Origin: Candidatus Kaiserbacteria bacterium
GTDB lineage: Bacteria > Patescibacteriota > Minisyncoccia > Phycocordibacterales > UBA2100
Direction: 5' to 3'
Length of the DNA stretch: 64,000 nucleotides
Assembly (NCBI GenBank): GCA_017134395.1
Contig: CP070993.1
Location: forward strand, 526,199 to 590,198
Positions 1,401-55,137 of this stretch are shown one piece after another. Each line of letters begins with the position of its first letter. Position 1 is the stretch's first letter. The notes beneath the pieces were generated by a model, which saw only the letters and a program-made list of their open reading frames with translations, had not been told where the DNA came from and made no database searches. The position numbers and the translations under genes were made by a program.

Positions 1401-3465
1401 CTTTTATAGATAGGTTGATACGTTTCTTATCATCAATCTCTTTGATTATAACAGGAACACGCTCACCTTCTGCTATTACATCAGCGACTGAGTTAATACG
1501 GAACGGAGCCAATTCTGATATATGCACCAAGCCTTCTGTGTTTGCCCCGATACGCACGAATGCCCCGAAGTCCATTATTCGTGTTACTTCTCCGTCGAAT
1601 TTCTCCCCTGCTACGTATTCATGCGTTAGTTCCTCAATCATTTTGGCAGCTTCTTCTGCAGCACCGTTTTGTCCTGTTATAAACACAGAACCGTCATCTT
1701 CAATAGATATTTCTGTTGTTCCCGTTTGGTCTTTGATACCATTGATTGTTTTTCCTCCTGGGCCGATAACAAGACCAATTTGGTCTTCCTTGATTCGTAA
1801 TGAAATTATTTTTGGTGCGCGTGGATTAATATCAGCACGTGGCTCCGAGATTGCTTTGAGCATAACATCCATGATTTGCATTCGTGCTACCTTTGCTTGA
1901 GCAAATGCCTCAGCAAGTACAGGTACTGTTACTCCTGCTACCTTTACATCCATTTGTACTGCAGTTACACCCTCACTTGTTCCAGCTACCTTGAAATCCA
2001 TATCGCCAAAGTGGTCTTCTGGTCCTTGTATATCAGTAAGTATTTTGTAGTTCCCTTTCGTGTCACTCATCATACCCATTGCAATACCTGCTACTGGACG
2101 TTTGATGGGAACACCTGCGTCCATCAGAGCTAAGGTAGAACCACACACACTTGCTTGCGAACTAGAACCATTACTTGCCATTGTTTCAGAGACTATTCTG
2201 ATGGTATAAGGGAAATCTTCTTTGCTTGGCAATACGGGAAGAAGTGCTTTTTCAGCGAGCGCACCGTGACCTATCATTCGACGATTAAATCCACCAACAC
2301 GCCCTGTTTCTCCAACAGAGAACGGCGCGAAGTTGTAATGATGCATGTATCGTTTCTTCGAGTCTGGGAATTCAATGGTATTCATAAGCTGTGCATCGTC
2401 GGGGCCGCCAAGAGTAAGTGCGGAAAGAACGTGAGTACCACCACGGTAGAAGATACCTGTTCCATGAATAAGATCAGATATTCCTCCAGCTTGTGCGTAA
2501 AGGTCACGAATTTCGTCCATCTTCCGTCCATCTTGTCGACGATCGTTTTCAAGAGCTTCTACGTGTACGAACTTGTCCACTTGTATTTCAAAGTATGCAG
2601 CAGCGTTAGCTGCTTCTTCGGGTAGTTGTTCTTTTACTAAAGTCATCCATTCACTCTTTAATGCGTATGCTCCCTTTTCACCGAATACGTATTCCCCCAT
2701 TTTTGGTTCAACTTCATTCGAAAATAATGTTGAAACTGCTCCACTTGCCTCTTGTGTAGGAATCTCTTGCTTTTCTTTTCCAATTTCTTTTATGATACTT
2801 TTCTGCCATTCTTGGAGTGTATTGTGTACTGCAACAGCAGCGTCGAGTCCCTTAACGAGACGTTCTTCAGGAACTTCTTTTGAGCTAACTTCTACCATGT
2901 TGATATTTCCATCTTGACCACATGCTAAGAGGTCGAGAATCTCAACATCCGAAGTTCGCTGTGCGTAGGAAGGATTAATAATGAATGTCTCGTCATTTGC
3001 TACTTGCCCGATACGAACTGCACTCACTGGGCCGTCCCATGGGATGTCGGATGTACTTAATGCAAGTGATGCAGCAATAACTCCTAGCACGTCAGGATCT
3101 TCTTCGTCGATTGCTAAGACAGTTACAATTACCTGAATATCACGACGTAATGTTTGATCAAACAGTGGGCGGATGGTTCGGTCTACAACACGCGCCGAAA
3201 GCACCGCCTCTTCTGAAGGTCGCCCTTCGCGGCGCTGGAAACGACTTCCTAGGATTGCACCAGCTGCGTAGAATTTTTCTTCAAATTCTACCGATAATGG
3301 AAACCAATCCTGGCCGTCACGTTGTCCACCCATAACAGCCGTTGCCATAACAGCAGTGCTGCCATACCGTAAAATCACTGAACCACTTGCTTGGTCTGCT
3401 AAGTCTGTAAATTGAGCAGTAAGGGTTTTGCCTCCTACCTCAATTGAGTATTCTTTTTTTTGCAT
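1294..3465 (-). CDS. pnp: polyribonucleotide nucleotidyltransferase (PNPase)
   Basis: 723-aa ORF with two RNase PH-like halves plus KH and S1 domains (…GEKFDGEVTRIMDFGAFVRIG…); typical PNPase length and N-terminus. Confidence 0.95.
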   Translation of the reverse strand: MQKKEYSIEVGGKTLTAQFTDLADQASGSVILRYGSTAVMATAVMGGQRDGQDWFPLSVEFEEKFYAAGAILGSRFQRREGRPSEEAVLSARVVDRTIRPLFDQTLRRDIQVIVTVLAIDEEDPDVLGVIAASLALSTSDIPWDGPVSAVRIGQVANDETFIINPSYAQRTSDVEILDLLACGQDGNINMVEVSSKEVPEERLVKGLDAAVAVHNTLQEWQKSIIKEIGKEKQEIPTQEASGAVSTLFSNEVEPKMGEYVFGEKGAYALKSEWMTLVKEQLPEEAANAAAYFEIQVDKFVHVEALENDRRQDGRKMDEIRDLYAQAGGISDLIHGTGIFYRGGTHVLSALTLGGPDDAQLMNTIEFPDSKKRYMHHYNFAPFSVGETGRVGGFNRRMIGHGALAEKALLPVLPSKEDFPYTIRIVSETMASNGSSSQASVCGSTLALMDAGVPIKRPVAGIAMGMMSDTKGNYKILTDIQGPEDHFGDMDFKVAGTSEGVTAVQMDVKVAGVTVPVLAEAFAQAKVARMQIMDVMLKAISEPRADINPRAPKIISLRIKEDQIGLVIGPGGKTINGIKDQTGTTEISIEDDGSVFITGQNGAAEEAAKMIEELTHEYVAGEKFDGEVTRIMDFGAFVRIGANTEGLVHISELAPFRINSVADVIAEGERVPVIIKEIDDKKRINLSIKDVDPKFASNKGVMPPTSNERHASESKPKTDGEKRS

Positions 3466-4243: not shown

Positions 4244-4783
4244 TTATCCGGTTATTCCGGGTATTTTCCAGTTGCGATGAGCAATGAGGTATTTCTTAGG
4301 GTCTTCATCCATATCTATAAAGTCGTCACAGACTTCACGGAGTTTTGATGATGAAGATTTACCAAAGCTAATAACCTCAACTTGCGTTCCTGAATGACGT
4401 TGGAGATATTCCACAAGTGGAATAAAGTCCCCGTCACCTGTTGCAAGTATGACGGCATCGAGCTTAGGTGCCATAGTAACGGCATCAATTGCCATGCCTA
4501 CGTCCCAATCGGCCTTCTTTGCACCACCAAAAAAGATTTGTAGATCTTTCGTAATGATTTCGATACCAAGCTTTTTCATAGCCTCAAAGAAGCTTTGTTC
4601 TTCGCCTGATTCCGTAGTAACCACATAGGCACGCGCTCGTATGAGCTGGCGTCCCGCAACACTTTCTTTCAAGACATTGTCGAAATTGACTTTCGCCTTG
4701 TAGATATTCTTTGCGCTGTGGTAGAGGTTTTGAGTGTCGATGAAAACACCGACACGTTGTTCTTTATGTTTAATAACTGACAT
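4244..4783 (-). CDS. NYN/LabA-like domain protein
   Basis: 179 aa; VGVFIDTQNLYHSAK … ILATGDGDFIPLV pattern of NYN/LabA PIN-like domains. Confidence 0.7.
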   Translation of the reverse strand: MSVIKHKEQRVGVFIDTQNLYHSAKNIYKAKVNFDNVLKESVAGRQLIRARAYVVTTESGEEQSFFEAMKKLGIEIITKDLQIFFGGAKKADWDVGMAIDAVTMAPKLDAVILATGDGDFIPLVEYLQRHSGTQVEVISFGKSSSSKLREVCDDFIDMDEDPKKYLIAHRNWKIPGITG

Positions 4784-5025
4784 AAAAATAGTTTCTTAAA
4801 AAATTACACTGAGTAAAAAATTCGACCAAACATATCAACAAAATCCATTCCGGAAGAAATGTATCCATTTTGCACAATTACTTGTTAAAAGTTTTTTAAT
4901 AATACATTGCATTATTTCGAAACTTTTAACTTCGTACTTGCACCAAAATTTTCATATTTCTTCTCGAAAGCAATTTTGCTGATATGTTGTGTATGTATCA
5001 TACAGTACGACTAACCAAGAATGCA

Positions 5026-8064: not shown

Positions 8065-9528
8065 CTAGGATACGTGATGCTTTTTTCGAAGCGCTTCTAT
8101 TTCTTTTTCGTCCTCTTCTTCCCTTCTGTCTTTTCCTTTTTCTCCAAGTTTTTGTAACTCGTTTATTGGCAATTGAGCTAATTCAGCAGCCCTGTCTTCA
8201 AGGTATTCAGGGGTGTTTTGTTTTGGCTCATCAAGAACCTCTTCAAGAAGTGCATGGAGTATCCATCCTACTTTTGGTCCTGGCCCGTCACCTAATATTT
8301 CAATAATTTTGTCGCCATTAATTTTGAGCATAGCAACTGAAATAGGATCACGAAGCGCTTCGTCAACCATGGATTTGTATTTGCGAAAACGAAATGGTTG
8401 TTCTTTTGGCCGGCCCGTACCAATGCGATCGCAGGTGCGTAATTCAAGCAGTTCCTGAATGTGGTCAACTCCAACATTTTGTATCATTCGACGAACTGCA
8501 CTGAGAGTTATTTGGTCAGGGTCGGAGAAAAACATATGCCAACGGACGAGCTTCTCTACGTTGTGTGCAGTATCTTTTGGAAATTTCAAGTCTCTTAATA
8601 TTTTGCGTGTCATACGCGCTCCAATAACTTCGTGCCCATAGAATGTGTAATCATTTTTTACTGTGTCACGACGTCGGCTTTCTGGTTTCCCTATGTCGTG
8701 TAGTAATGCAGCAAGGCGTACATCAAAAGAATAGTTTTTGTCTGCGGCATGCTGTAGGCTGCGCATAAGGTGTTCGAACACATCGTATGAATGCGCTTGG
8801 TTTTGCTCACATCCAATACCCTCTTTGAGTTCAGGAATGATGTATTCCATTAATCCTAAGCGTTGTGCAAAAAATACTGCCTGCATCGGCGTGTCTGATG
8901 CAACGATTCGCATGAGCTCGTCTCGTACGCGTTCTTGAGAAACTTTTTCAATAAGCTGCGCATGCTCTGCTATTGCCGAGGCAGTTTTTGATTCGATTGT
9001 GAAGTTGAGCTCAGCTGCAAGGCGTATTGCACGCATCATACGTAGTGCGTCCTCTGTAAAACGATCTGTAGCTTCCCCGACAGTAACAATACGTTTTAAT
9101 CGTATGTCCTCTACCCCTTTATATGGGTCTACAAGCTCGTCGCGCGTTGGATTGTATGCTATGGCATTCATCGTGAAATCACGTCGCTGTAGGTCGTCTG
9201 TGAGATTCTTGCTAAATGTTACTTCATCAGGATGGCGCGCGTTGCTGTATGTTGATTCGATTCTATAAGGGGTCACCTCGACCACTTTGAGCGTGGGGTC
9301 GTCAGACTCCGTTTTTACACCGACAGTCCCAAAATCATTTTCATAGAAAGAATCAGGAAATATTTTTTGAATTTCCTCAGGGTTAGCGTTTGTAGTAAGA
9401 TCCCAATCTTTAGGAATCTTGTTGCGTATAAGATCGCGCGTACAACCCCCTACGAGGTATGCTTCGAAACCAGCATTCTCTAATGTCGTAACAATGGTAA
9501 GAACTTCTTGCGGTACAGAGTGTCTCAT
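8065..9528 (-). CDS. cca: CCA-adding tRNA nucleotidyltransferase (pol-beta NTase head plus HD domain)
   Basis: N-terminal GGCTRDLI… NTase motif, HD motif LLHDIGK; 487 aa. Confidence 0.85.
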   Translation of the reverse strand: MRHSVPQEVLTIVTTLENAGFEAYLVGGCTRDLIRNKIPKDWDLTTNANPEEIQKIFPDSFYENDFGTVGVKTESDDPTLKVVEVTPYRIESTYSNARHPDEVTFSKNLTDDLQRRDFTMNAIAYNPTRDELVDPYKGVEDIRLKRIVTVGEATDRFTEDALRMMRAIRLAAELNFTIESKTASAIAEHAQLIEKVSQERVRDELMRIVASDTPMQAVFFAQRLGLMEYIIPELKEGIGCEQNQAHSYDVFEHLMRSLQHAADKNYSFDVRLAALLHDIGKPESRRRDTVKNDYTFYGHEVIGARMTRKILRDLKFPKDTAHNVEKLVRWHMFFSDPDQITLSAVRRMIQNVGVDHIQELLELRTCDRIGTGRPKEQPFRFRKYKSMVDEALRDPISVAMLKINGDKIIEILGDGPGPKVGWILHALLEEVLDEPKQNTPEYLEDRAAELAQLPINELQKLGEKGKDRREEEDEKEIEALRKKHHVS

Positions 9529-10511: not shown

Positions 10512-10608
10512 AGACTTATGAACAGTTTTATCTTATTTGTGCACATTTGTGTTTCATAAGAAACAATATGAACTTTTCCTAGTATTAGAGCCATTTAACT
10601 CTTCCACA

Positions 10609-10628
10609 TGTTTTCACGTGAAAACATA
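10609..10628. repeat. TTTCACGTGAAA palindromic unit (copy 1)
   Basis: atgttttcacgtgaaaacat, a 20-bp palindrome with a CACGTG core. Confidence 0.7.
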
Positions 10629-10747: not shown

Positions 10748-10764
10748 ATTTCACGTGAAACTAT
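10748..10764. repeat. TTTCACGTGAAA palindromic unit (copy 2), abutting the 3' end of the K+ channel gene
   Basis: atttcacgtgaaactatg. Confidence 0.7.
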
Positions 10765-11549
10765 GAAGTGAGTGAAGAATGCTTGTGTTTAACTGGCTCA
10801 CCACAGTGTTTACATCGGATTGCGTCGATATCATGAGCGCTTAAGCCACAATTTGGGCATGTATAGTGCACTTTTGCCCCATGAAATATAGTTCTCGTAA
10901 GTTGCAAAAAGAGGGTAATACCTATAAGCATAGCCACCACAGAGAGCATTTTGCCCCACGGTCCTGCAGCTGTGACGTCACCATAGCCAGTTGTTGTAAG
11001 GGTGGAAACAGTGAAGTATAGTGCATCAAGGTAGGAATTTATATGTGGATTGAATTGTGCTTCAGCAACAAAGACTATGGCTGTCATTATTGCGAGAAAC
11101 ACAAAGAAGTTGAGTAGACTTTCAAGAGTTGCGCTGTATTGGTAGATAGTTTTGCTCTCTTTTTTGGCTAAATTCACCAAGTAGTAGGTGCGAAGGATCT
11201 TGAGTGAGCGCAAAACTCGCAAAAGTGCCAAGTTTCCTACCAAAAGTGGTGCAAAGAGTGAGACAATGACTAAAATATCTATTACGCTAAAGACGTTAAA
11301 GACAAACGAGAGCCTTCGGGGTGAAATCCATAAGCGCGCAAGATACTCTAAGAGGAAAAGAGTACCAAATACAATTTCCAGCACCTTCGTGAAAGAATGT
11401 CCTGGATTTGCAGCTTCTAATAGGAAAATGCCAAAAACTGCTACGTTTAAGAGGATAAGCACCCGGTTAAAGATAATGCTTTTACGAGTGCGCTTGTGAA
11501 AGAGAGTAGTGAGTTGCTTTTTTACTTTGGGAAAAGAACTTTTCTTCAT
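10761..11549 (-). CDS. voltage-gated-type (6TM) potassium channel with C-terminal zinc-ribbon
   Basis: K+ selectivity filter TLTTTGYGDVT; S4-like LALLRVLRSLKILR with arginines at every third position; C-terminal CPNCG…CKHCG. Confidence 0.85.
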   Translation of the reverse strand: MKKSSFPKVKKQLTTLFHKRTRKSIIFNRVLILLNVAVFGIFLLEAANPGHSFTKVLEIVFGTLFLLEYLARLWISPRRLSFVFNVFSVIDILVIVSLFAPLLVGNLALLRVLRSLKILRTYYLVNLAKKESKTIYQYSATLESLLNFFVFLAIMTAIVFVAEAQFNPHINSYLDALYFTVSTLTTTGYGDVTAAGPWGKMLSVVAMLIGITLFLQLTRTIFHGAKVHYTCPNCGLSAHDIDAIRCKHCGEPVKHKHSSLTS

Positions 11550-11581: not shown

Positions 11582-11968
11582 ATGAGTAGAAACAAAGATA
11601 TTGGGAATACTGGAGAGCACATAGCCGCACGTTTTTTAGAGACGAAGGGGTTTTCTATTTTAGGTAAGAATTACAGCAAGAAATGGGGTGAACTCGACAT
11701 TATTGCTAAGAAAGAAGGAGTAGTGCATTTTGTGGAAGTAAAAACAATTTCACGTGAAACTCAAAACATAGTTTCACGTGAAAATAATTCTGCGTATAGA
11801 GCGGAAGAGAATATGCATAAGAAAAAGATAGAGCGTTTACATAGGGCTATTCAGAGTTATATAGAGGAGTTCAATGTAAAAGAGGATTGGCAGTTAGATT
11901 TAGTGACTGTAGTTCTTTTTATAAAGGACAAAAAAGCTGAGTGTCGATTTGTAGAAAATGTCCTTTAG
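11582..11968 (+). CDS. yraN: YraN-family (UPF0102) endonuclease-like protein
   Basis: EHIAARFLETKGFSILGKNY…GELDIIAKKEGVVHFVEVK; contains an in-frame tandem insertion of the palindromic unit. Confidence 0.75.
   Translation: MSRNKDIGNTGEHIAARFLETKGFSILGKNYSKKWGELDIIAKKEGVVHFVEVKTISRETQNIVSRENNSAYRAEENMHKKKIERLHRAIQSYIEEFNVKEDWQLDLVTVVLFIKDKKAECRFVENVL
11747..11785. repeat. two tandem TTTCACGTGAAA units (copies 4 and 5) inside the yraN coding sequence
   Basis: atttcacgtgaaactcaaaacatagtttcacgtgaaaat, translated in frame as ISRETQNIVSREN. Confidence 0.75.
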
Positions 11969-12260: not shown

Positions 12261-12535
12261 ATTCTAATTTGTATATCTGCAGTAGAGAAACTTGACAGTA
12301 TTATGGCTGGCAGTATCTTATATATATGCACGTGAACATACATAAGATTATATTTCTGAATCTGATTGGTCTCAGCGAGGCATCTGTGTGGGTACGAGTA
12401 TAAATATAAAAAATTTTAAACTCAAGCACCCGCACAAAGCGGGCTTTTTGTTTGGTTTTTCAGTCAGTGTATATAACGTTTTGGTATGTACTGACTGGGG
12501 AAGCAATGAGGCTTTTTCAGAAAAAGGAGGTCAAT

Positions 12536-23455: not shown

Positions 23456-23676
23456 AGTTTTTTAGGTTACCACACTGATTTTTGTAAAAAGAAAGACCGG
23501 CACAAGCCGGACTATTCATAAACAGTATGTGCTACGCAGTATACCTACTGCTTGTAATCAAGTCAATACTACTGAGGTCTTGCATAAAGGTGCTTCTACA
23601 CAGTAAAAAAGGGCTTTAAATGCGGCATTTGGTATACTTACATACAAGAGGGTGCAGTAAGCACTCGTGTTATCAC

Positions 23677-25422
23677 ATGTACATTAATGACGAACAACTT
23701 CGTGAATTTTTAAGCGACTCAGGACTTGTTTCGCAGAAAAAATTCGATAACGCTGTAAAAACAGCGACAGAAAAAAGCATTACGGTGAGTGAAGTGTTGG
23801 TTTCAGAAGGAGAGATTTCTGAAGACGATTTGCGACGCTCGCACGCGTACGTACTTGGTATTCCTTTTGTTAATTTGTCTGATTCAAAACCAGATCTTAA
23901 TACTCTGGCTCTTATTCCAGAACCTATTGCGCGACGTAATAATATTGTTGCGTTTAGGCAAGAAGAGAACAATTTGGAAGTTGCCATGCTTGATACGGAT
24001 GATTTGGCAGCGATTGATTTCGTAAAGAAGAAGACGCAGCTTAAGATTCTGCCGCGACTTACTGACGCTGCATCAATTAAACAGATGCTTCGCTTGTACC
24101 AAAAGACACTTCGCGACGAATTGGGAGATGTAATTACGCGTGAATCACAAACGCTTGAAAAGTTTGGAAAATTACAACCAGAGAACGAAAAGGATTTACG
24201 AAAACTTGCAGAAGGAGTTCCTGCTGTACGAGTGCTTGATTCATTACTGCGCCACGCAATTGTACAAAATGCATCTGACATACATATAGAGCCACAAGAA
24301 GACGCGCTGTTAGTTCGCTATCGTATTGATGGAATTTTGCATGACGCTATGTCACTGCCAAGTAGTGCCACTGCTTCGATTACTGCACGTGTAAAAATTT
24401 TGGCCAACTTACGGTTGGATGAAAAAAGACTCCCTCAAGATGGGCGGTTCAGAATGGAGACAGATGGCGATAGGGTGTCATTCCGTGTTTCAGTGCTACC
24501 GACGTATCATGGAGAAAAAACAGTTATGCGATTGTTGCGCGAAGACGTTTCTGGATTCACATTAGAATCTCTTGGCTTTCATGGTGAGGGGCTTGAACGC
24601 TCACATGATGCTACTAGAAAGAAAACTGGGTTGATTCTTGTTACAGGCCCAACCGGTTCTGGTAAGTCAACAACTCTCTATACTATGTTGGATATTTTAA
24701 ATACTGCAGACGTCAATATTTCAACAGTTGAAGATCCGATTGAGTATCAGATGAAGCGCATAAACCAAACACAAGTTCGACCAGACATTGGATTCACATT
24801 CTCTACAGGGCTTCGGTCACTCGTCCGGCAAGACCCTGATATTATTATGGTTGGTGAAATTCGAGACCGCGAAACTGCGGCGTTAGCCATTAATGCAGCA
24901 CTTACTGGCCACCTTGTGCTTTCAACGCTTCACACCAATTCAGCAGCTGGCGCAGTGCCACGTCTTATTGATATGGGGGTAGAGCCTTTTTTACTTGCAT
25001 CAACATTGCAAGTAGTTATTGGCCAACGACTTGTTCGTACACTGTGTAACGATAGAGAAGAATACAAACTATCCGCCGCCGAAATTAGGGGTCTGGAAGA
25101 GATGGCCGACTTAGGGGCCGTACTGAAGGCATTAAAAGAAGAAGACATTGTTTCCCAAAAAAGTACATTTAAAAATGTTTCTCTTTCAAAAGAAAAGCCA
25201 ACAAAAGAATGTGAGACGGGTTACAGTGGACGAAAGGGAATTCAAGAAGTACTGCCGGTGACAGAAGGAATTAAAAAAATGATTCTTTCAGGGTCTTCAG
25301 CTGATGCTATTGAAGATCAGGCACGAAAAGAGGGGATGCTTACCATGCTTGAGGATGGTATTTACAAAAGCGCATCAGGAACGACGAGTCTTGCCGAAGT
25401 ACTTCGTGTGGTAAGTGAATAA
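23677..25422 (+). CDS. pilB: type IV pilus assembly / type II secretion ATPase (PilB/GspE family)
   Basis: Walker A GPTGSGKST, GspE N-domain, Asp and His boxes; 581 aa from the Met at 23677. Confidence 0.9.
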   Translation: MYINDEQLREFLSDSGLVSQKKFDNAVKTATEKSITVSEVLVSEGEISEDDLRRSHAYVLGIPFVNLSDSKPDLNTLALIPEPIARRNNIVAFRQEENNLEVAMLDTDDLAAIDFVKKKTQLKILPRLTDAASIKQMLRLYQKTLRDELGDVITRESQTLEKFGKLQPENEKDLRKLAEGVPAVRVLDSLLRHAIVQNASDIHIEPQEDALLVRYRIDGILHDAMSLPSSATASITARVKILANLRLDEKRLPQDGRFRMETDGDRVSFRVSVLPTYHGEKTVMRLLREDVSGFTLESLGFHGEGLERSHDATRKKTGLILVTGPTGSGKSTTLYTMLDILNTADVNISTVEDPIEYQMKRINQTQVRPDIGFTFSTGLRSLVRQDPDIIMVGEIRDRETAALAINAALTGHLVLSTLHTNSAAGAVPRLIDMGVEPFLLASTLQVVIGQRLVRTLCNDREEYKLSAAEIRGLEEMADLGAVLKALKEEDIVSQKSTFKNVSLSKEKPTKECETGYSGRKGIQEVLPVTEGIKKMILSGSSADAIEDQARKEGMLTMLEDGIYKSASGTTSLAEVLRVVSE

Positions 25423-25425
25423 TAT

Positions 25426-26634
25426 ATGAAGTTCACCTACAAAGCAGAACGAGATGGGGAGACGTACACTGACACTATTGAAGCAACTGATAGGTTTGAG
25501 GTGTATAGACATGTGAGAGCAGAGGGGGGAACGGTGATTTCGGTTACCTCGGAAGCACAAAACAACTGGAGTCTTACGTATTGGAATTCTAAATTTTCGA
25601 CAGTAAAAGAGCACGACAAAATTGTGTTCGCATCAAACCTTGCAGCCATGATTTCAGCCGGACTTCCGATATCGCGTGCGCTTTCAGTTGCAGAGAGACA
25701 GGCAAAAAACCCCAAACTAAAAAGCGTTATCTTGCATGTGCGTGGGGATATTCAAAAGGGCGGCACGTTTCATGAGGCGCTTGGTAGATTTCCTAATATA
25801 TTTTCTAAATTATTTGTCGCAATGGTTCGCGCAGGTGAAGAGTCAGGAACACTCGATGAGGCACTTACGACAGTTGGAAACCAACTTCAACGCTCATACG
25901 AACTGAAGAAAAAAATTAAAGGAGCACTTATTTATCCAAGTATTATTGTAGTGGCTATTGTTGGTATTGGTTTTCTGATGATGACTGAAGTAGTACCAAC
26001 ACTTTCGAAGACATTTACAGAATTAGGAGCTGATCTCCCCAAGGCAACGCAGGCGATTATTAATGTGAGTGATTTTTTGGTGAATTACACACTCCTTGTA
26101 CTACTTGGCGTTTTGGGTTCTGTTGCAGGGGTATATGGAATTTTACGAACAGCTGGTGGTCAGCGTGGCAGAGATAAGATTCTCCTAACGACTCCTTTAA
26201 TTGGTGAGCTTGTGAAAGAAATTAATGCAGCACGAACTGCACGGACATTTGCTTCGCTCCTAGCGGCTGGGGTAGATATTCTTACTGCACTTCAAATTAC
26301 TGGCGAAGTTGTACAAAACCACTATCACAAAGATGTGCTTAAAGCAGCAGCAGAAAAAGTTCAAAAGGGAGGGCAGCTTTCGGATACATTTATGAAACGA
26401 GAAGATCTCTACCCGCCGCTTATGGGTGAGATGATAGCAGTAGGTGAAGAGACAGGTGCACTTGCTGACATGCTTTTACGTGTAGCTACTTTTTACGAAG
26501 GCGAGGTTGAACAAAAAACAAAAAATATGTCGACAATTATTGAACCATTTCTCATGTTAATCATTGGTGTGACTGTCGGGTTCTTCGCAGTTGCGATGAT
26601 AGGACCTATTTACTCTCTCTCTGAGGCTTTCTAA
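25426..26634 (+). CDS. pilC: type IV pilus inner-membrane platform protein (PilC/GspF family)
   Basis: two GspF repeats, 3 TM helices, 402 aa, immediately downstream of pilB. Confidence 0.9.
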   Translation: MKFTYKAERDGETYTDTIEATDRFEVYRHVRAEGGTVISVTSEAQNNWSLTYWNSKFSTVKEHDKIVFASNLAAMISAGLPISRALSVAERQAKNPKLKSVILHVRGDIQKGGTFHEALGRFPNIFSKLFVAMVRAGEESGTLDEALTTVGNQLQRSYELKKKIKGALIYPSIIVVAIVGIGFLMMTEVVPTLSKTFTELGADLPKATQAIINVSDFLVNYTLLVLLGVLGSVAGVYGILRTAGGQRGRDKILLTTPLIGELVKEINAARTARTFASLLAAGVDILTALQITGEVVQNHYHKDVLKAAAEKVQKGGQLSDTFMKREDLYPPLMGEMIAVGEETGALADMLLRVATFYEGEVEQKTKNMSTIIEPFLMLIIGVTVGFFAVAMIGPIYSLSEAF

Positions 26635-26656
26635 CCCAAAAAATAATATTGATTGG

Positions 26657-26680
26657 TAACATACTGATGCATCAGTATGT
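26657..26680. promoter_or_regulatory. perfect 24-bp palindrome (candidate operator) between pilC and the pilin genes
   Basis: aacatactgatg|catcagtatgtt; core ACTGATGCATCAGT shared with 37029-37049 and 37498-37518. Confidence 0.55.
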
Positions 26681-26738
26681 TTGAGTTCTCAGCAACGAGT
26701 GTACACGTGTATTCAACAGTACGGTACAATACTAAGTA

Positions 26739-27200
26739 ATGAAGTCGAATGTTCTTTATATACGAGGGGTAGGACTGCTAGAGATTGTAGTAGGAGTATC
26801 ACTCCTTACCACGGTTTTTGTAGGAATGTTTGGCGTGTTACAGCTCGGAACTCGGCTTGCGACAGATAATAAATCTCGTACCGGAGCACTCGCACTTGCG
26901 ATTGAGAGAATGGAATACATACGTAGCCTCGATTACGATGATATCGGGACGGTTGGTGGAGACCCTTCAGGTGCCCTCTTGGTGAGTGTACCAATTACAC
27001 TGAATAACATTGCGTACACACAACGCACGTATATTGTATATGTAGATGATCCCAAAGATGGTTCCGGTGGCTCAGATTCAAATGGTATAACCGATGACTA
27101 CAAGAGGGTAAAAGTTGAGGTGTCATGGGTGGGTCCAAAAAATAATGTACGAGAGACTACGTTAGTGAGTGATATTTCATCGCTATTAATAGAATCATAG
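26739..27200 (+). CDS. prepilin-type (pseudopilin-like) protein
   Basis: N-terminus MKSNVLYIRGVGLLEIVVGVSLL resembles a class III signal with Glu at +5; 153 aa. Confidence 0.6.
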   Translation: MKSNVLYIRGVGLLEIVVGVSLLTTVFVGMFGVLQLGTRLATDNKSRTGALALAIERMEYIRSLDYDDIGTVGGDPSGALLVSVPITLNNIAYTQRTYIVYVDDPKDGSGGSDSNGITDDYKRVKVEVSWVGPKNNVRETTLVSDISSLLIES

Positions 27201-27201
27201 T

Positions 27202-27798
27202 ATGAAATATTACGCATCACAGCGCGGATTTACTTTATTAGAAGCAGTTGTATTACTGGGCGTGTTTGTTTTGATTGTCGGCGCTATTGTTTCTTCACTA
27301 CGGTATGTCTATCGAGGTCAGCGGTTTGCTTTTGAACAAGCTGATGCGACGCGTTCAGCTCGAACTGGTATTGAACGCGCGGTGCAAGATTTACGCGAAG
27401 CATCAGATGCAGACAATGGCGCGTATCCTATTGTATCGATGGCAACAAGCAGCGTTTCTTTCTATAGTGACTACGACAATGACAATAAAATTGAACAGAT
27501 TCGGTATTTTATAGATGGGACAGATTTCAAAAAAGGAATTATAGAATCTAGTGGAGACCCTCCTGTGTACAATGGGGGAAGTGAGGTGGTGACAACTATT
27601 GCAACTGAGGTTCGTAATAATGTAATCGGTACACCTATGTTTACTTACTATGATAAGAGTGGGGTATTTATGAATGACTATACTGATATCGACCAACTGG
27701 CTTTTGTGACGCTACGACTTGTTGTTAATCTGCACCCAGAACGCGCGCCTGATGATTTTGAGCTCAGAAGTAGCGCCGCACTCCGTAACATTAGATAA
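27202..27798 (+). CDS. type IV pilin-like protein
   Basis: canonical prepilin signal RGFTLLEAVVLLGVFVLIVGAI. Confidence 0.75.
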   Translation: MKYYASQRGFTLLEAVVLLGVFVLIVGAIVSSLRYVYRGQRFAFEQADATRSARTGIERAVQDLREASDADNGAYPIVSMATSSVSFYSDYDNDNKIEQIRYFIDGTDFKKGIIESSGDPPVYNGGSEVVTTIATEVRNNVIGTPMFTYYDKSGVFMNDYTDIDQLAFVTLRLVVNLHPERAPDDFELRSSAALRNIR

Positions 27799-27799
27799 T

Positions 27800-29218
27800 A
27801 TGAAACATTCTTCACAAAAGGGAATCGTAATTATTTTAGTGCTGGTGTTTGCAGCAGTATTTGGATTGTCAGTTTCTGCTCTCACAAGTTTTATATTTAG
27901 CCAGGCGCAATTAGGGGCTGGAAAAGAAGTGCGCGAACAGGCGCTGAATATAGCCGAAGCAGGTCTTGAATACTATCATTGGTTCCTTACTCACAACCCT
28001 GGAGATACCCAAGACGGAACTGGAGGCCTCGGGCCGTATGTACACACCTATTCTGATCCAGAAACCGGTGAAATAGGTTCGTTTAGTTTAGATATTGTTG
28101 GAAATGAGTCTTGTGGAATACTGCAGTCAATAGACGTCACATCAACTGGCACCGTGAATTCCGACCCCAAATTTACTCGAACTGTTTTTGGGAGACATGC
28201 TGCTCCTTCTGTTGCTGAATACTCGTACATTATCGGGGACGACGTATGGGCTGGTGCTGATCGTGAAATTACCGGACCCTATCATTCAAATGGAGGCATA
28301 CGGATGGATGGGACCAACAACTCAGTGGTAACGAGTGCTGTCTCAACGTGGTCTCAGAGTTTCAACTGCAACGGTGGGAGTGCATCCCCGGGCGTGTGTG
28401 GTGACGGGCCAAATTCTACGCTCTGGCGATACCCTGCTTCTGAGTTGAGCTTTAGTGATATAGAGGCTAATTTCTCGAGTATAAAAACAGCAGCAATTGC
28501 GGATGGTATTTATCTTGCGCCATACGGCTCAACTGAAACCTACATCTTTAATCCTTACGGAGGTCCAACAGACACTGCGGCTGATGGGTACCACTTGATT
28601 TTTAATGCAGATGGAACAGTTGATATATATCAAGTTACCAGCACGACAGGATATTGGGGGTATCTTTCGGGCATTGGGTACACAGCCGATTACCATATTA
28701 TAAGTGGAGAGTCTTTTATAGAGCGACGTACAGTACCTACAGATTGTTCAGTTATCTTTGTTGAAGATAAAGTATGGATTGAAGGAACAGTAAAAGGAAA
28801 AGTAACAGTCATAGCAGCAGATTTGGTGAATTCTGGATATGATCCAGATGTAATTATCTCTGGTGATATTGATTACTCTGTACAAGATGGTTCAGATGGC
28901 CTTACTGTCATCAGTGAATTTGGTATCTACCTACCGAGAGACTCCGCTGATACACTTTCAATACACGGTATTTTTGTCGCACAAGGAGATAGATTTGGTC
29001 GACCATATTATAGCGGTAGTTTAAAGACGCAATTAACAATAAAAGGATCTATTGTGTCGAGTCAACGAGTAGGAACTTCTTGGTCATCAGGATCTACTAT
29101 TATTTCAGGTTACCAGAATCGGGATAGCATATATGATCGACTACAGACAACAAACCCGCCTCCATTTACGCCATCGAGGACGCTCATTCCTGAATATATT
29201 CTTTGGCAAGAACTGTAG
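27800..29218 (+). CDS. large pilus-associated protein (minor pilin/PilX-like N-terminus, big C-terminal domain)
   Basis: N-terminal hydrophobic helix QKGIVIILVLVFAAVFGLSV; pilin-operon context; Gly/Ser/Thr-rich C-terminal domain. Confidence 0.5.
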   Translation: MKHSSQKGIVIILVLVFAAVFGLSVSALTSFIFSQAQLGAGKEVREQALNIAEAGLEYYHWFLTHNPGDTQDGTGGLGPYVHTYSDPETGEIGSFSLDIVGNESCGILQSIDVTSTGTVNSDPKFTRTVFGRHAAPSVAEYSYIIGDDVWAGADREITGPYHSNGGIRMDGTNNSVVTSAVSTWSQSFNCNGGSASPGVCGDGPNSTLWRYPASELSFSDIEANFSSIKTAAIADGIYLAPYGSTETYIFNPYGGPTDTAADGYHLIFNADGTVDIYQVTSTTGYWGYLSGIGYTADYHIISGESFIERRTVPTDCSVIFVEDKVWIEGTVKGKVTVIAADLVNSGYDPDVIISGDIDYSVQDGSDGLTVISEFGIYLPRDSADTLSIHGIFVAQGDRFGRPYYSGSLKTQLTIKGSIVSSQRVGTSWSSGSTIISGYQNRDSIYDRLQTTNPPPFTPSRTLIPEYILWQEL

Positions 29219-34784: not shown

Positions 34785-36224
34785 ATGCATCGATTTCTCC
34801 CCGTACTCTTCGGGGCGTTTGCCTTAGGAATTGCAGTCAGATCATTTTATGAATTTGGATTGACTTTCGTAGGGCTCTTTGTTTTGAGTGCTCTTAGCCT
34901 ATTGTTTGTTTCACGGCGCAGACTCTTCGTGGTATGTGCAATAGCCCTTTTGTTCTTTGCGCTTGGTGTTGGACGTATGCACGTTGCGGTACCGGTTACG
35001 ATTACGAACATAGAGGTACACACAGAAGACATTGTTGTATTTGAAGGAGTGGTTATAAAAGAACCAGATATTCGAGATACCTACACCAATATAGTTGTCG
35101 CACGCACTGATACAAAACAAAAAGTACTTGTACGGATAACTCCATTTGAAGAGGTTCACTACAAAGACGAAGTCGCGATACGAGGAATCCTTGAAGCACC
35201 TGAAAATTTTGAGGGCGAAGGAGGCAGGATTTTTAATTACAGAGCGTATTTAGCAAAGGATGCTATTTACAGCATCGCTCCGTTTCCTGAATTTGAAGTA
35301 CTTACGAGTAATTCAACACCAACAGGTTTACTTCTCACGCTCAAAGGGGCGTACTTAGCATCTCTCAAGAGTGTTCTTCCCGAGCCTTCAGCGGCACTCG
35401 CTGGTGGAATTACTGTAGGTGAGAGGCGTTCATTAGGCGATGAGCTCACGCAAGATTTTCGCGATACGGGGCTCATACATATTGTAGTGCTCTCTGGTTA
35501 CAATATTGCCATTGTGGTGCTGTTCATTGTAGCGATGCTTTCGTTTCTACCGCCCAAGCCGAGACATCTCGTTGCTATAGGTGGTATTTTTGTATTTACT
35601 ATCCTCGTCGGTGCTTCAGCGACTGTCGTGCGTGCCGCAATAATGGGAAGCATCGCGTCGTTGGGGGTTGTCGCGGGTCGTACCTATGCGGCACTCTACA
35701 CGCTCGTGCTTGCCGGATTTGCTATGCTGCTGTGGAATCCGTATCTATTAATATATGACCCATCATTTCAGCTCAGTTTCGTAGCAACTGCTGGGCTGTT
35801 ACTTGGAGTTCCGATACTTTTACCGTATCTCCATTTCGTACCCGAAAACTATGCATTGAAGGACATTTTTGCAGCTACCATTGCAACGCAAATCGCCGTA
35901 CTTCCGTTACTGGTGTACATGATAGGGGATGTTTCATTGGTAGCAGTACTCGTTAATCTTCTCGTACTTCCTACAATACCGTTGGCGATGCTCTTTGTGT
36001 TTTTAACTGGTGTAGTAGGAATGGTATACCAACCATTTGCACTTTTGTTTGGGTTTATCGCCCATGCGTTCTTATCGTATGTCATTTTACTCGTAGAGTT
36101 TTTTGCTGACGTTCCATTTGCGGTTGTTAGTCTGCCGACTTTTTCTTTTGTATTTGTGCTTGCTGCATACGGGCTACTGACTGCACTCGTGTGGTATATA
36201 CAAAGAAAAAACGACCCAGCATAG
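34785..36224 (+). CDS. comEC: ComEC/Rec2 competence channel protein, membrane (N-terminal/competence) part only
   Basis: ~10 TM helices, competence-domain motif GLIHIVVLSGYNIAIV; no metallo-beta-lactamase domain in this ORF. Confidence 0.75.
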   Translation: MHRFLPVLFGAFALGIAVRSFYEFGLTFVGLFVLSALSLLFVSRRRLFVVCAIALLFFALGVGRMHVAVPVTITNIEVHTEDIVVFEGVVIKEPDIRDTYTNIVVARTDTKQKVLVRITPFEEVHYKDEVAIRGILEAPENFEGEGGRIFNYRAYLAKDAIYSIAPFPEFEVLTSNSTPTGLLLTLKGAYLASLKSVLPEPSAALAGGITVGERRSLGDELTQDFRDTGLIHIVVLSGYNIAIVVLFIVAMLSFLPPKPRHLVAIGGIFVFTILVGASATVVRAAIMGSIASLGVVAGRTYAALYTLVLAGFAMLLWNPYLLIYDPSFQLSFVATAGLLLGVPILLPYLHFVPENYALKDIFAATIATQIAVLPLLVYMIGDVSLVAVLVNLLVLPTIPLAMLFVFLTGVVGMVYQPFALLFGFIAHAFLSYVILLVEFFADVPFAVVSLPTFSFVFVLAAYGLLTALVWYIQRKNDPA

Positions 36225-37020: not shown

Positions 37021-37049
37021 TTGCAAATGTGCTGATGCATCAGTACATT
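37021..37049 (+). promoter_or_regulatory. sigma70-like promoter (TTGCAA-17-TACATT) with a near-perfect 26-bp palindrome (candidate operator) spanning the spacer and -10; the ATG of the downstream regulator is at the predicted +1
   Basis: ttgcaa atgtgctgatgcatcag tacatt; palindrome aaatgtgctgatg|catcagtacattt. Confidence 0.5.
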
Positions 37050-37055
37050 TAGTTC

Positions 37056-37493
37056 ATGGCGCTTGTATCGAAAAAAGTTTTTTCTGCAGAAACGCGAAAA
37101 CGTATTCGCCGGCAATTTATCGAGTTGTTTGCACGACAGAAAACGCGTAAAGATATAGCTACTGTTCTTGACCAACTTTTGACCGACACCGAGCGCTTGA
37201 TGCTGGCAAAACGCATTGTGCTTATACTTATGCTACAAAACAAAAGTTCGTACTACGAGATACGTGAAGCACTTGGCGTCAGTACCGACACGTCTGCACG
37301 ATGGCATGCATTACTTGAGGAAGGCGAGCTCGATGCGATTGTTAAAACACTCAAGCAGAAAAAAGCTCGCGAACACTTGCTCGATACGGTAGAAATTATT
37401 TTGCGCAGTGGTATGCCACCTATTGCAGGAAGAAATCGGTACTCACGGACATTTCAACTTATAGCTGAAGTAAAGCAGGAGAAGCGTTGGTAA
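37056..37493 (+). CDS. TrpR/YerC-YecD-like helix-turn-helix DNA-binding protein
   Basis: 145 aa; LLTDTERLMLAKRIVLILMLQNKSSYYEIREALGVSTDTSARW resembles TrpR-family HTH proteins. Confidence 0.55.
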   Translation: MALVSKKVFSAETRKRIRRQFIELFARQKTRKDIATVLDQLLTDTERLMLAKRIVLILMLQNKSSYYEIREALGVSTDTSARWHALLEEGELDAIVKTLKQKKAREHLLDTVEIILRSGMPPIAGRNRYSRTFQLIAEVKQEKRW

Positions 37494-37497
37494 TAAC

Positions 37498-38373
37498 ATG
37501 CTGATGCATCAGTACATTCGGGAATATAGGAAAAAAATTACCGTTGCACTTATCGGTGTACTTTTTGTGGGCGTAGTGAGTATTTGGTATCCGATTCTTA
37601 GCACCGAAAGCAAAAGAATTCTGACTGTTTCATTTCTTGATGTGGGGCAGGGTGATGCTATTTTTATTGAAACTCCAAGTGGGCGGCAAATTCTGGTTGA
37701 TGGAGGAAAAGATAATAGAGTATTGCATCAACTCAATGACGCTATGCCATTTTGGGATAGGTCGATTGATGTTGTTGTTGCGACACATCCTGATGCCGAC
37801 CACATAGGCGGACTAATAGAAGTACTTAAACGTTACCGTGTTGATACGTTTGTTCACTCAGGTGTGGCACACGATACAGAAGAGAATACGGCACTGGCAT
37901 CTTTGGTTGCCGAAAAAGATGTCCGCTCTGTTCTTGCAAAGAGAGGTCAAGTTTACGATTTCGGAGACGGAACTACTATTACCATATTGTTTCCTGACAG
38001 ACCGGTAAGTGCTCTTGAATCAAATGCAGCATCTATTATTGCACAGGTCACCTTTGGCAAGCATTCGTTCCTGCTTACGGGGGACTCCCCAAAAATGATA
38101 GAAGAGTACCTACTTTCTTTAGGAGGCGATCAATTGCAGAGTACTGTACTTAAAGTAGGGCACCATGGTTCCAAGACATCAAGTTCTCCTCTGTTTGTTG
38201 GGTTTGTAGCACCAGAGTATGCGGTGCTGTCCCGTGGCTGTGATAATAGGTACGGACATCCGCATGAAGAAGTTATAGCTGTATTGAATAGTTTTGAGAT
38301 TGCCACATTCGATACCTGTGATGATGGACGAGTTACGTTTACCAGTAACGGGCAGATCCTACAGATCAAGTGA
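37498..38373 (+). CDS. ComEC C-terminal metallo-beta-lactamase domain as a separate ORF with one N-terminal TM helix
   Basis: SFLDVGQGDAIFIETP…HPDADHIGG…VGHHGSKTSSS (MBL motifs); the first 21 nt of the ORF are the shared palindrome atgctgatgcatcagtacatt. Confidence 0.8.
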   Translation: MLMHQYIREYRKKITVALIGVLFVGVVSIWYPILSTESKRILTVSFLDVGQGDAIFIETPSGRQILVDGGKDNRVLHQLNDAMPFWDRSIDVVVATHPDADHIGGLIEVLKRYRVDTFVHSGVAHDTEENTALASLVAEKDVRSVLAKRGQVYDFGDGTTITILFPDRPVSALESNAASIIAQVTFGKHSFLLTGDSPKMIEEYLLSLGGDQLQSTVLKVGHHGSKTSSSPLFVGFVAPEYAVLSRGCDNRYGHPHEEVIAVLNSFEIATFDTCDDGRVTFTSNGQILQIK

Positions 38374-42028: not shown

Positions 42029-42262
42029 TTCGTGCACTGCACTCAAGAATAGCAAGATGCACTGTATCATTTTATTTTTCACGCGCGCCTTGTATTGCAT
42101 TTCATTTGAGAAACTTTTTACTTACATCTACTAGAGGAGATCAAAATTAGAGTCCACCAAAAACAAAAACATCCAATTAATCGGATGTTTCTAAGGACTT
42201 GTCTATTTTTTTGTGATACATTGTTCGCAGTTGTATAGAATTCCAATGAAAGGAAGGGAAAT

Positions 42263-47591: not shown

Positions 47592-47627
47592 TTAAACCAC
47601 CAAAACGCATGCGTTTTGGTGGTTTAA
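47592..47627. repeat. perfect 36-bp palindrome between rpsJ and rplC
   Basis: ttaaaccaccaaaacgca|tgcgttttggtggtttaa. Confidence 0.7.
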
Positions 47628-55097: not shown

Positions 55098-55137
55098 TCA
55101 TAAACCATCAGAATGCAGGCATTCTGATGGTTTATGA
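55098..55137. repeat. near-perfect 40-bp palindrome in the rplE-rpsZ gap
   Basis: gtcataaaccatcagaatgc-ag-gcattctgatggtttatgag (17-bp perfect arms). Confidence 0.7.

Follow-up and report, generated by a model that had tools for sequence, protein, structure and literature searches.

A TrpR-like regulator of Patescibacteria with a gene bracketed by two palindromes, its probable operators

A stretch of 64,000 nucleotides from the Candidatus Kaiserbacteria bacterium assembly GCA_017134395.1 (contig CP070993.1, positions 526,199 to 590,198; this whole stretch is called the window below) encodes a 145-aa TrpR-like regulator whose gene stands between two copies of one palindrome. The explanation that we hold to be likely is that the regulator represses its own gene through these copies, which would act as two cognate operators, and that in the clade of the window the adjoining gene, for a metallo-beta-lactamase (MBL) domain, is repressed along with it. 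Read from the available sequences, a large subfamily of TrpR-like proteins specific to Patescibacteria shares the arrangement operator-gene-operator as its usual layout, and each lineage in it has a palindrome of its own. The regulator gene and the palindromes of the window are as follows.

37056-37493, plus strand: 145-aa TrpR-fold regulator of the Patescibacteria subfamily, helix-turn-helix (HTH) at about residues 66-88
37026-37049, no strand: s1, upstream palindrome and probable operator, halves AATGTGCTGATG and CATCAGTACATT with one mismatched pair; occupies the promoter spacer and -10 element
37495-37518, no strand: s2, downstream palindrome and second probable operator, halves AACATGCTGATG and CATCAGTACATT; at the junction of the regulator and ComEC-MBL genes
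26658-26681, no strand: s3, third copy, a perfect 24-bp palindrome with halves AACATACTGATG and CATCAGTATGTT; function uncertain, lineage-specific

The sequence CTGATGCATCAG occurs exactly three times in the 64 kb, at 37026-37049, 37495-37518 and 26658-26681. The two copies at the regulator share the 20-mer TGCTGATGCATCAGTACATT (37030-37049 and 37499-37518), and direct reading confirmed the coordinates given for them in an earlier note on this DNA, which had described them as 21-mers with g or a as first base (37029-37049 and 37498-37518). The perfect 24-bp palindrome of the same core that this note had placed at 26657-26680 exists as well, but one base further to the right. With up to two mismatches allowed, the 14-mer ACTGATGCATCAGT matched s1, s2 and s3 only; shuffling gave an expectation of 0.24 matches and none of 100 shuffles reached three. 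Relaxed searches found no further near-copies in the window. Together with the control genes described below, the shuffles exclude a chance origin of the palindrome set. The site s2 begins 2 nt past the stop codon of the regulator and spans two ATG codons of the Lactamase_B gene (37498 and 37504), and the distance from s1 to s2 is 469 bp from centre to centre. The third copy lies 24 nt past the pilC stop codon, with its centre about 69 nt 5' of a pilin ATG.

Close homologues of the regulator are few, since a collection of 5.8 billion proteins yielded only five, with 94, 86, 72, 65 and 44% identity. In the first four of these relatives the regulator gene has the same place as in the window, between the superoxide dismutase gene (sod) and the MBL gene, both palindromes are found at identical positions, and the core TGATGCATCA is invariant with drifting flanks. 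The downstream copy occupies the same junction of regulator and MBL gene in loci L002, L005, L007 and L050. In the 94% relative s2 is identical to that of the window, and s1 is a perfect palindrome of 24 bp in which, compared with the window, G:C at position 9 is symmetrically replaced by A:T.

When metagenome and genome collections were scanned with a profile, metagenome loci being taken with 3-kb flanks, about 25 further lineages with 26-44% identity were added from groundwater, marine and other Patescibacteria, and a narrower alignment scan of genome contigs returned 6 loci. At E <= 1e-10 the family comprises 1,581 clusters at 50% identity; its taxonomic breadth rests on the source names of the hits, and all hits with a named source were Patescibacteria (Kaiser-, Niyogi-, Taylor-, Zambryski-, Pace- and Saccharibacteria). 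Almost all of the distant loci carry a long palindrome over the promoter and the same palindrome 0-70 nt from the stop codon. When the 80 nt 5' of the ATG were compared with the 110 nt 3' of the stop, the two regions shared a word of at least 10 nt containing a palindrome in 27 of 29 evaluable family loci, with words of up to 26 nt, while the same test was positive for only 4 of 253 control genes of the same sequences. The co-occurrence of motif and regulator, for which a comparative analysis had been proposed earlier, recurs throughout the family as twin sites of lineage-specific sequence. The genes that follow the regulator in the family are diverse (FBA, ProRS, ThrRS, ATP synthase, HtpX-like, msrB and others). 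Since about half of the family loci have a convergent gene next to the regulator and the neighbours are unrelated, the second site is not simply the operator of the next gene and is therefore to be regarded as part of the regulator's own module. Throughout the 20-kb loci the cognate palindromes adjoin the regulator only, apart from a copy at tpiA in L038/UBA2100 and a copy with another core in L043.

Some of these loci hold additional palindromes. The Parcubacteria locus L040 has one upstream and three downstream copies ahead of msrB; the latter three (4678-4881) are spaced 82-92 bp apart in the 300-bp gap between regulator and msrB, and each has different self-complementary outer arms. In the Saccharibacteria locus L043 a perfect palindrome of 42 bp (8138-8179, equivalent to L033 1138-1179) is situated directly 3' of the L25 gene, and its core, ACTCCAGTATACTGGAGT, belongs with the L040-type regulator and not with the one encoded 2 kb away, which suggests, from sequence comparison, that a genome may hold several regulator paralogues with separate sites. 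An unrelated 36-bp palindrome, AAAATTTGCGACTCAACCGGTTGAGTCGCAAATTTT, is present in L042 in two copies 9.3 kb apart (3031-3068 and 12366-12401, the latter equivalent to L032 5366-5401). Locus L038 carries a perfect 40-bp palindrome, CGTTAACAGACCTACTGATGCATCAGTAGGTCTGTTAACG, 5' of tpiA (1417-1456, equivalent to about 1438-1477 of L002). One assembly has a contig end at this sequence (start of L003) and another has a scaffold gap there (N-run in L001), and assemblers seem to break at it.

The core of the palindrome varies among lineages, but any one gene has the same core on its two sides. The identity of residue 78, which is adjacent to the invariant Thr79 in the predicted recognition helix, separates the cores without exception; the regulator of the window has Asp78-Thr79 in this helix. 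Proteins with Ser78 are found with the core CGAT(A/T)-(A/T)ATCG, of the CGATATATCG type, where the hyphen marks the axis (17 loci), those with Thr78 or Val78 with CAGT(A/T)-, CAATA- or TCATA- cores, of the CAGTATACTG type (8 loci), and those with Asp78 with TGATG-CATCA, that is TGATGCATCA (5 loci, which constitute the window clade). Because the core tracks residue 78 and the gene is located together with the sites, the encoded protein rather than another factor is very probably the one that would read the flanking palindromes. A TrpR-family dimer had been put forward in the earlier note as the candidate binder, and this proposal gains from the conservation of the twin sites, their recurrence across the family and the covariation of the core with residue 78. 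Of the 16 positions specified in TGTAcTnGTnnACnAgTACA, the TrpR motif of gamma-proteobacteria (PMC9413887), the 20-mer of s1 agrees with 13. The match is exact in the right half and the outer half-sites have the same GTAC-N10-GTAC spacing, in line with the resemblance to the E. coli TrpR operator that had been pointed out before.

The assignment of the regulator to the TrpR family is likewise upheld. The protein matches Pfam PF01371 (Trp_repressor) with 36.3 bits over residues 20-91, against a cutoff of 27, and it matches Pfam HTH_23 as well; homologues of the regulator carry a precomputed PF01371 annotation. Its start codon is set by a conserved N-terminus, MA(F/L)(V/T)S, also given as MA(F/L)VSKK. 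The AF2 model has a predicted local distance difference test score of 87.6 and eight helices in an all-helical fold of the TrpR type, and the best three PDB matches in Foldseek were 3kor, a YerC-like protein of S. aureus, and 6f9k and 1wrp, both E. coli TrpR (probability 0.94-0.97, target-normalised TM 0.58-0.73). Relative to the TrpR and YerC proteins of about 100 aa the regulator has two extra C-terminal helices, and it contains a conserved loop, G-M-P-P-x-x-G-R-x-R-(W/Y), that is modelled with low confidence. We suspect from the model that the C-terminal extension could make dimer-dimer or minor-groove contacts. No paralogue of the regulator was found in the window or in the larger loci, which hold one copy per 20-64 kb. 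The window and the related loci contain no trp genes; no his genes were found near the regulator in the window or the family loci.

More specific identities were considered and rejected. TrpR proper, as defined by the NCBIfam equivalog TIGR01321, was matched with 23.4 bits against a cutoff of 67.25, and YerC/YecD, that is HisR (TIGR02531), with 20.7 bits against 42.2, and here the length of 145 aa and the different motif also disagree. The similarity to IS630-type transposases is a 22-bit match to positions 2-57 of a profile of 299, and the protein ends at 145 aa.

The promoter of the regulator gene could be read directly from the sequence.

37021-37026, plus strand: -35-like hexamer TTGCAA
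37044-37049, plus strand: -10-like hexamer TACATT, 6 nt 5' of the ATG at 37056; predicted leaderless start

The order is TTGCAA, a 17-nt spacer, TACATT, 6 nt and the ATG. The first four relatives have the same layout, TTG(C/T)A(A/C), 17 nt, TA(C/T)A(C/T)T, 6 nt, ATG, with TTGYAM at the same position before the 17-nt spacer in L002, L005, L007 and L050. In the family, 22 of 30 loci have a TAnnnT hexamer exactly 6 nt 5' of the ATG, and the palindrome overlaps the region from -45 to -5 in every case. Such a -10 hexamer in most family members suggests a leaderless mRNA, and the mRNA of the regulator probably starts at its ATG, which fits the leaderless, autoregulated promoter with +1 at the ATG that had been read here before; the conserved geometry of -35, spacer, -10 and 6-nt gap is what backs that reading.

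Leaderless-type promoters look common in this Kaiserbacteria genome, judging from the window, and are then not peculiar to the regulator. A TAnnnT hexamer is found 5-8 nt 5' of the first ATG in 22 of 74 open frames of the window, against a background of 6%, including the pilin, tpiA and recJ genes (for example at 26725-26741, 29237, 31545 and 33310).

The genes related to DNA uptake that enter the argument are the following.

37498-38373, plus strand: C-terminal MBL domain of ComEC as a separate gene (Pfam Lactamase_B)
34785-36224, plus strand: N-terminal part of ComEC, DUF4131 and Competence, the other half of the split comEC (Pfam)
23620-29218: PilB, PilC and three pilin-like genes (profile matches)

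The domains of ComEC/Rec2 are present but split over the two genes, and the MBL gene aligns to positions 411-663 of TIGR00361 (ComEC_Rec2) with 131.8 bits, compared to a cutoff of 190 for the full length. Between the halves lie the sod gene, on the opposite strand, and the regulator gene, and the split layout is the same in relatives down to 65% identity. Only 4 nt separate the regulator stop codon from the MBL ATG, which lies within s2 in five lineages. With a start so close to the regulator and within s2, the MBL gene of the window clade is probably transcribed together with the regulator and would be co-repressed with it.

The mechanism we propose is that a dimer of the TrpR-fold repressor, possibly under the influence of a ligand, would recognise TAC-TGATGCATCA-GTA by its HTH. 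As s1 fills the spacer and the -10 element of what appears to be a sigma-70-type promoter, the protein, once bound, would prevent its own production. Binding at s2 might be cooperative with that at s1, by way of a loop of about 470 bp in the DNA, or it might block transcription across the junction in the manner of a roadblock or insulator. Expression of the split MBL domain of ComEC in the window clade would consequently be confined to times when the repressor is off.

Several observations weigh against this autorepression model. At 29 of 50 sites the palindrome continues without a mismatch for 3 bp or more outside the segment that the sister site has in common with it, and the arms reach up to 23 bp. 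A simple operator model explains neither this extended palindromy nor the need for a second site 3' of the gene. The correspondence between core and residue 78 is counted over loci that are phylogenetically non-independent, and the Foldseek E-values are weak, 0.45-1.3, despite the probabilities of 0.94-0.97. A consensus promoter scan raised no flag at the s1 promoter, where only 8 of 12 positions match, and the case for the promoter therefore depends on its conserved position. Finally, twin sites are missing in the 44% homologue L006 and in the partial homologue L031/L041 from Amesbacteria. In L006 a Peptidase_S24 (LexA-like) gene and a gene resembling Y-family polymerases run divergently from the regulator, and the intergenic region (about 1720-1765) holds GTGAACGTTCGTTCAC, a LexA-type box of the form GAAC-N4-GTTC. 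A LexA explanation of the palindromes was rejected, as it fits only L006, with its upstream inverted repeat adjoining the Peptidase_S24 gene.

The extended palindromy points to selection or mutational bias for palindromy itself, through cruciform or hairpin formation or through template-switch correction. One may speculate further that the long perfect palindromes are extruded as cruciforms or hairpins which the regulator recognises, that the module is an insulator, a boundary or a selfish unit, and that residue 78 is a one-residue specificity switch which has produced many orthogonal pairs; the chance that this is correct appears rather slim to us. Another view is that the palindromes are not operators at all and function as RNA or DNA hairpins, that is as terminators, stabilisers of mRNA ends or stem-loops that sequester start codons. 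The stems of the distant relatives are indeed long, perfect and very stable (-20 to -22 kcal/mol, z about -7), palindromy exceeds what the sister sites share, s2, s3 and the extra copies are located directly 3' of stop codons, and assembly breaks at the 40-bp copy. A pure hairpin role gives, however, no reason for a core that is shared upstream and downstream of one gene or that tracks residue 78, and s1, being in the promoter spacer and -10 element, would not be transcribed from that promoter. The sites of the window clade are shorter, their folds are unremarkable (z -1.7 to -1.9) and the half-site changes (C/A and G/T at positions 6-7) are not compensatory. A terminator reading of s1-s3 was dismissed on account of these weak folds and of the lack of T-runs and terminator-like hits at the three sites, and we find the hairpin explanation as a whole very unlikely.

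In the earlier note the sites were interpreted as a competence regulon in which s2 and s3 are target operators through which the repressor co-ordinates genes for the type IV pilus and for ComEC. The part of this proposal that concerns ComEC holds, given the probable operon membership of the MBL gene and the position of s2 over its start codon in five lineages. For the pilus genes the position of s3 between pilC and the pilin-like genes is suggestive, the third copy of UBA2100 adjoins the same pilin cluster on its other side, and L006 is near a ComEC gene. Nevertheless, s3 is absent on both flanks of the pilin cluster in five relatives (L044-L048, PilC identity 91, 86, 81, 78 and 78%), in all of which the pilin gene keeps a TACAAT-N6-8-ATG promoter of its own, and in the window s3, centred near -69, falls outside this promoter. 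The copy in UBA2100, with 86% identity in the regulator, is the perfect palindrome of 40 bp and stands between the last gene of the pilin cluster and tpiA, where it overlaps the tpiA promoter region. Since s3 is not conserved, the link to the pilus could not be sustained. The copy past the stop codon is in itself no evidence for a competence regulon because it is a general feature of the family, present in nearly all members whether FBA, ProRS, ThrRS, ATP synthase, HtpX-like or msrB follows. We consequently judge a regulon that unites pilus and ComEC genes to be unlikely. A mobile or selfish cassette, active or a remnant, in which the HTH gene and the flanking palindromes move as a unit with the palindromes as its ends, seems highly improbable to us. 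It would be in keeping with the unrelated contexts of the module across lineages, with the weak similarity to the HTH of IS630 transposase and to HTH_23, and with the patchiness suggested by five close homologues in contrast to dozens of PilC relatives of 73-91% identity. On the other hand, a transposase or recombinase domain is missing from the module, each sub-clade keeps a stable synteny down to 65% identity, only one copy occurs per 20-64 kb, and the sister sites lack a consistent direct-repeat signature (10 loci fit a direct repeat better and 7 an inverted one). Patchy gain or loss may have occurred, given how few close homologues the Kaiserbacteria have.

The autorepression model has parallels in well-known systems. 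TrpR of E. coli autoregulates its own gene, and it shares with the regulator the Pfam family, the nearest solved fold and a palindromic operator with outer half-sites of the GTAC type. The E. coli protein has 108 aa, whereas the regulator has 145 with its two C-terminal helices and the G-M-P-P-x-x-G-R-x-R-W/Y loop, and it differs further in the second operator directly 3' of the stop codon, in the leaderless-type promoter and in the absence of trp genes nearby. Action on two separated operator copies, of which one is at the promoter and the other hundreds of bp distant, by looping or as a roadblock, is familiar from lambda cI, encoded between OR and OL, and from lac O1/O2; in the present family, by comparison, the sites tightly bracket a single gene of 0.4 kb and are invariant in this across the family. 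The C proteins of restriction-modification systems are likewise small HTH proteins that regulate themselves, and their own promoters, which are often leaderless, carry palindromic boxes. C-boxes are found upstream only, and the fold of C proteins is Xre-like and not TrpR-like; no restriction or methylase genes adjoin the regulator in the window or the related loci. HisR (YerC/YecD), the histidine repressor of Firmicutes, is a TrpR-family member of less than 100 aa with lineage-specific palindromic motifs of 20 bp, of the form cacTTTAnnnnnnTAAAgtg, and about half of the genomes studied have a site ahead of the HisR gene itself (PMC9413887). No downstream twin site has been described for HisR, in contrast to the regulator.

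TrpR-family autorepressors with palindromic operators are thus already known from TrpR and HisR, whereas the Patescibacteria subfamily, its invariant operator-gene-operator layout with a leaderless-type promoter and the correspondence between residue 78 and core appear new. In the literature, which was incompletely covered, we found no account of the subfamily, its layout or the residue-78 correspondence, nor anything relevant on TrpR/YerC-type regulators in Patescibacteria, Saccharibacteria, Parcubacteria or the candidate phyla radiation (CPR). To our knowledge almost nothing is established about the control of transcription in Patescibacteria (CPR), which have very few regulators and for the most part cannot be grown in culture. 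The analysis delimits a CPR-specific branch of TrpR with a predicted operator for each member, a leaderless layout and an apparent one-residue rule of recognition. Such a family can be tested with synthetic DNA without cultivation and would be a source of naturally orthogonal repressor/operator pairs. For the genome of the window the prediction is that the split nuclease-like domain of ComEC is co-repressed with the regulator and that the pilus genes probably are not.

Other palindromes were observed in the window. Two parS-like palindromes, ATGTTTTCACGTGAAAACAT and TAGTTTCACGTGAAAATA, at 10608-10627 and 11769-11786, stand on either side of an ion-channel gene (10761-11549, minus strand); the second falls within a UPF0102 gene, and no ParB gene is adjacent. 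A perfect palindrome of 36 bp, TTAAACCACCAAAACGCATGCGTTTTGGTGGTTTAA, is located between tuf and a ribosomal-protein cluster (47592-47627), one of 40 bp between the L5 and S8 genes (55098-55137), and a further one, AAACATCCAATTAATCGGATGTTT, at 42167-42190. These last three have neither a T-run nor a match to the TGATGCATCA core, and they may be operators of other regulators.

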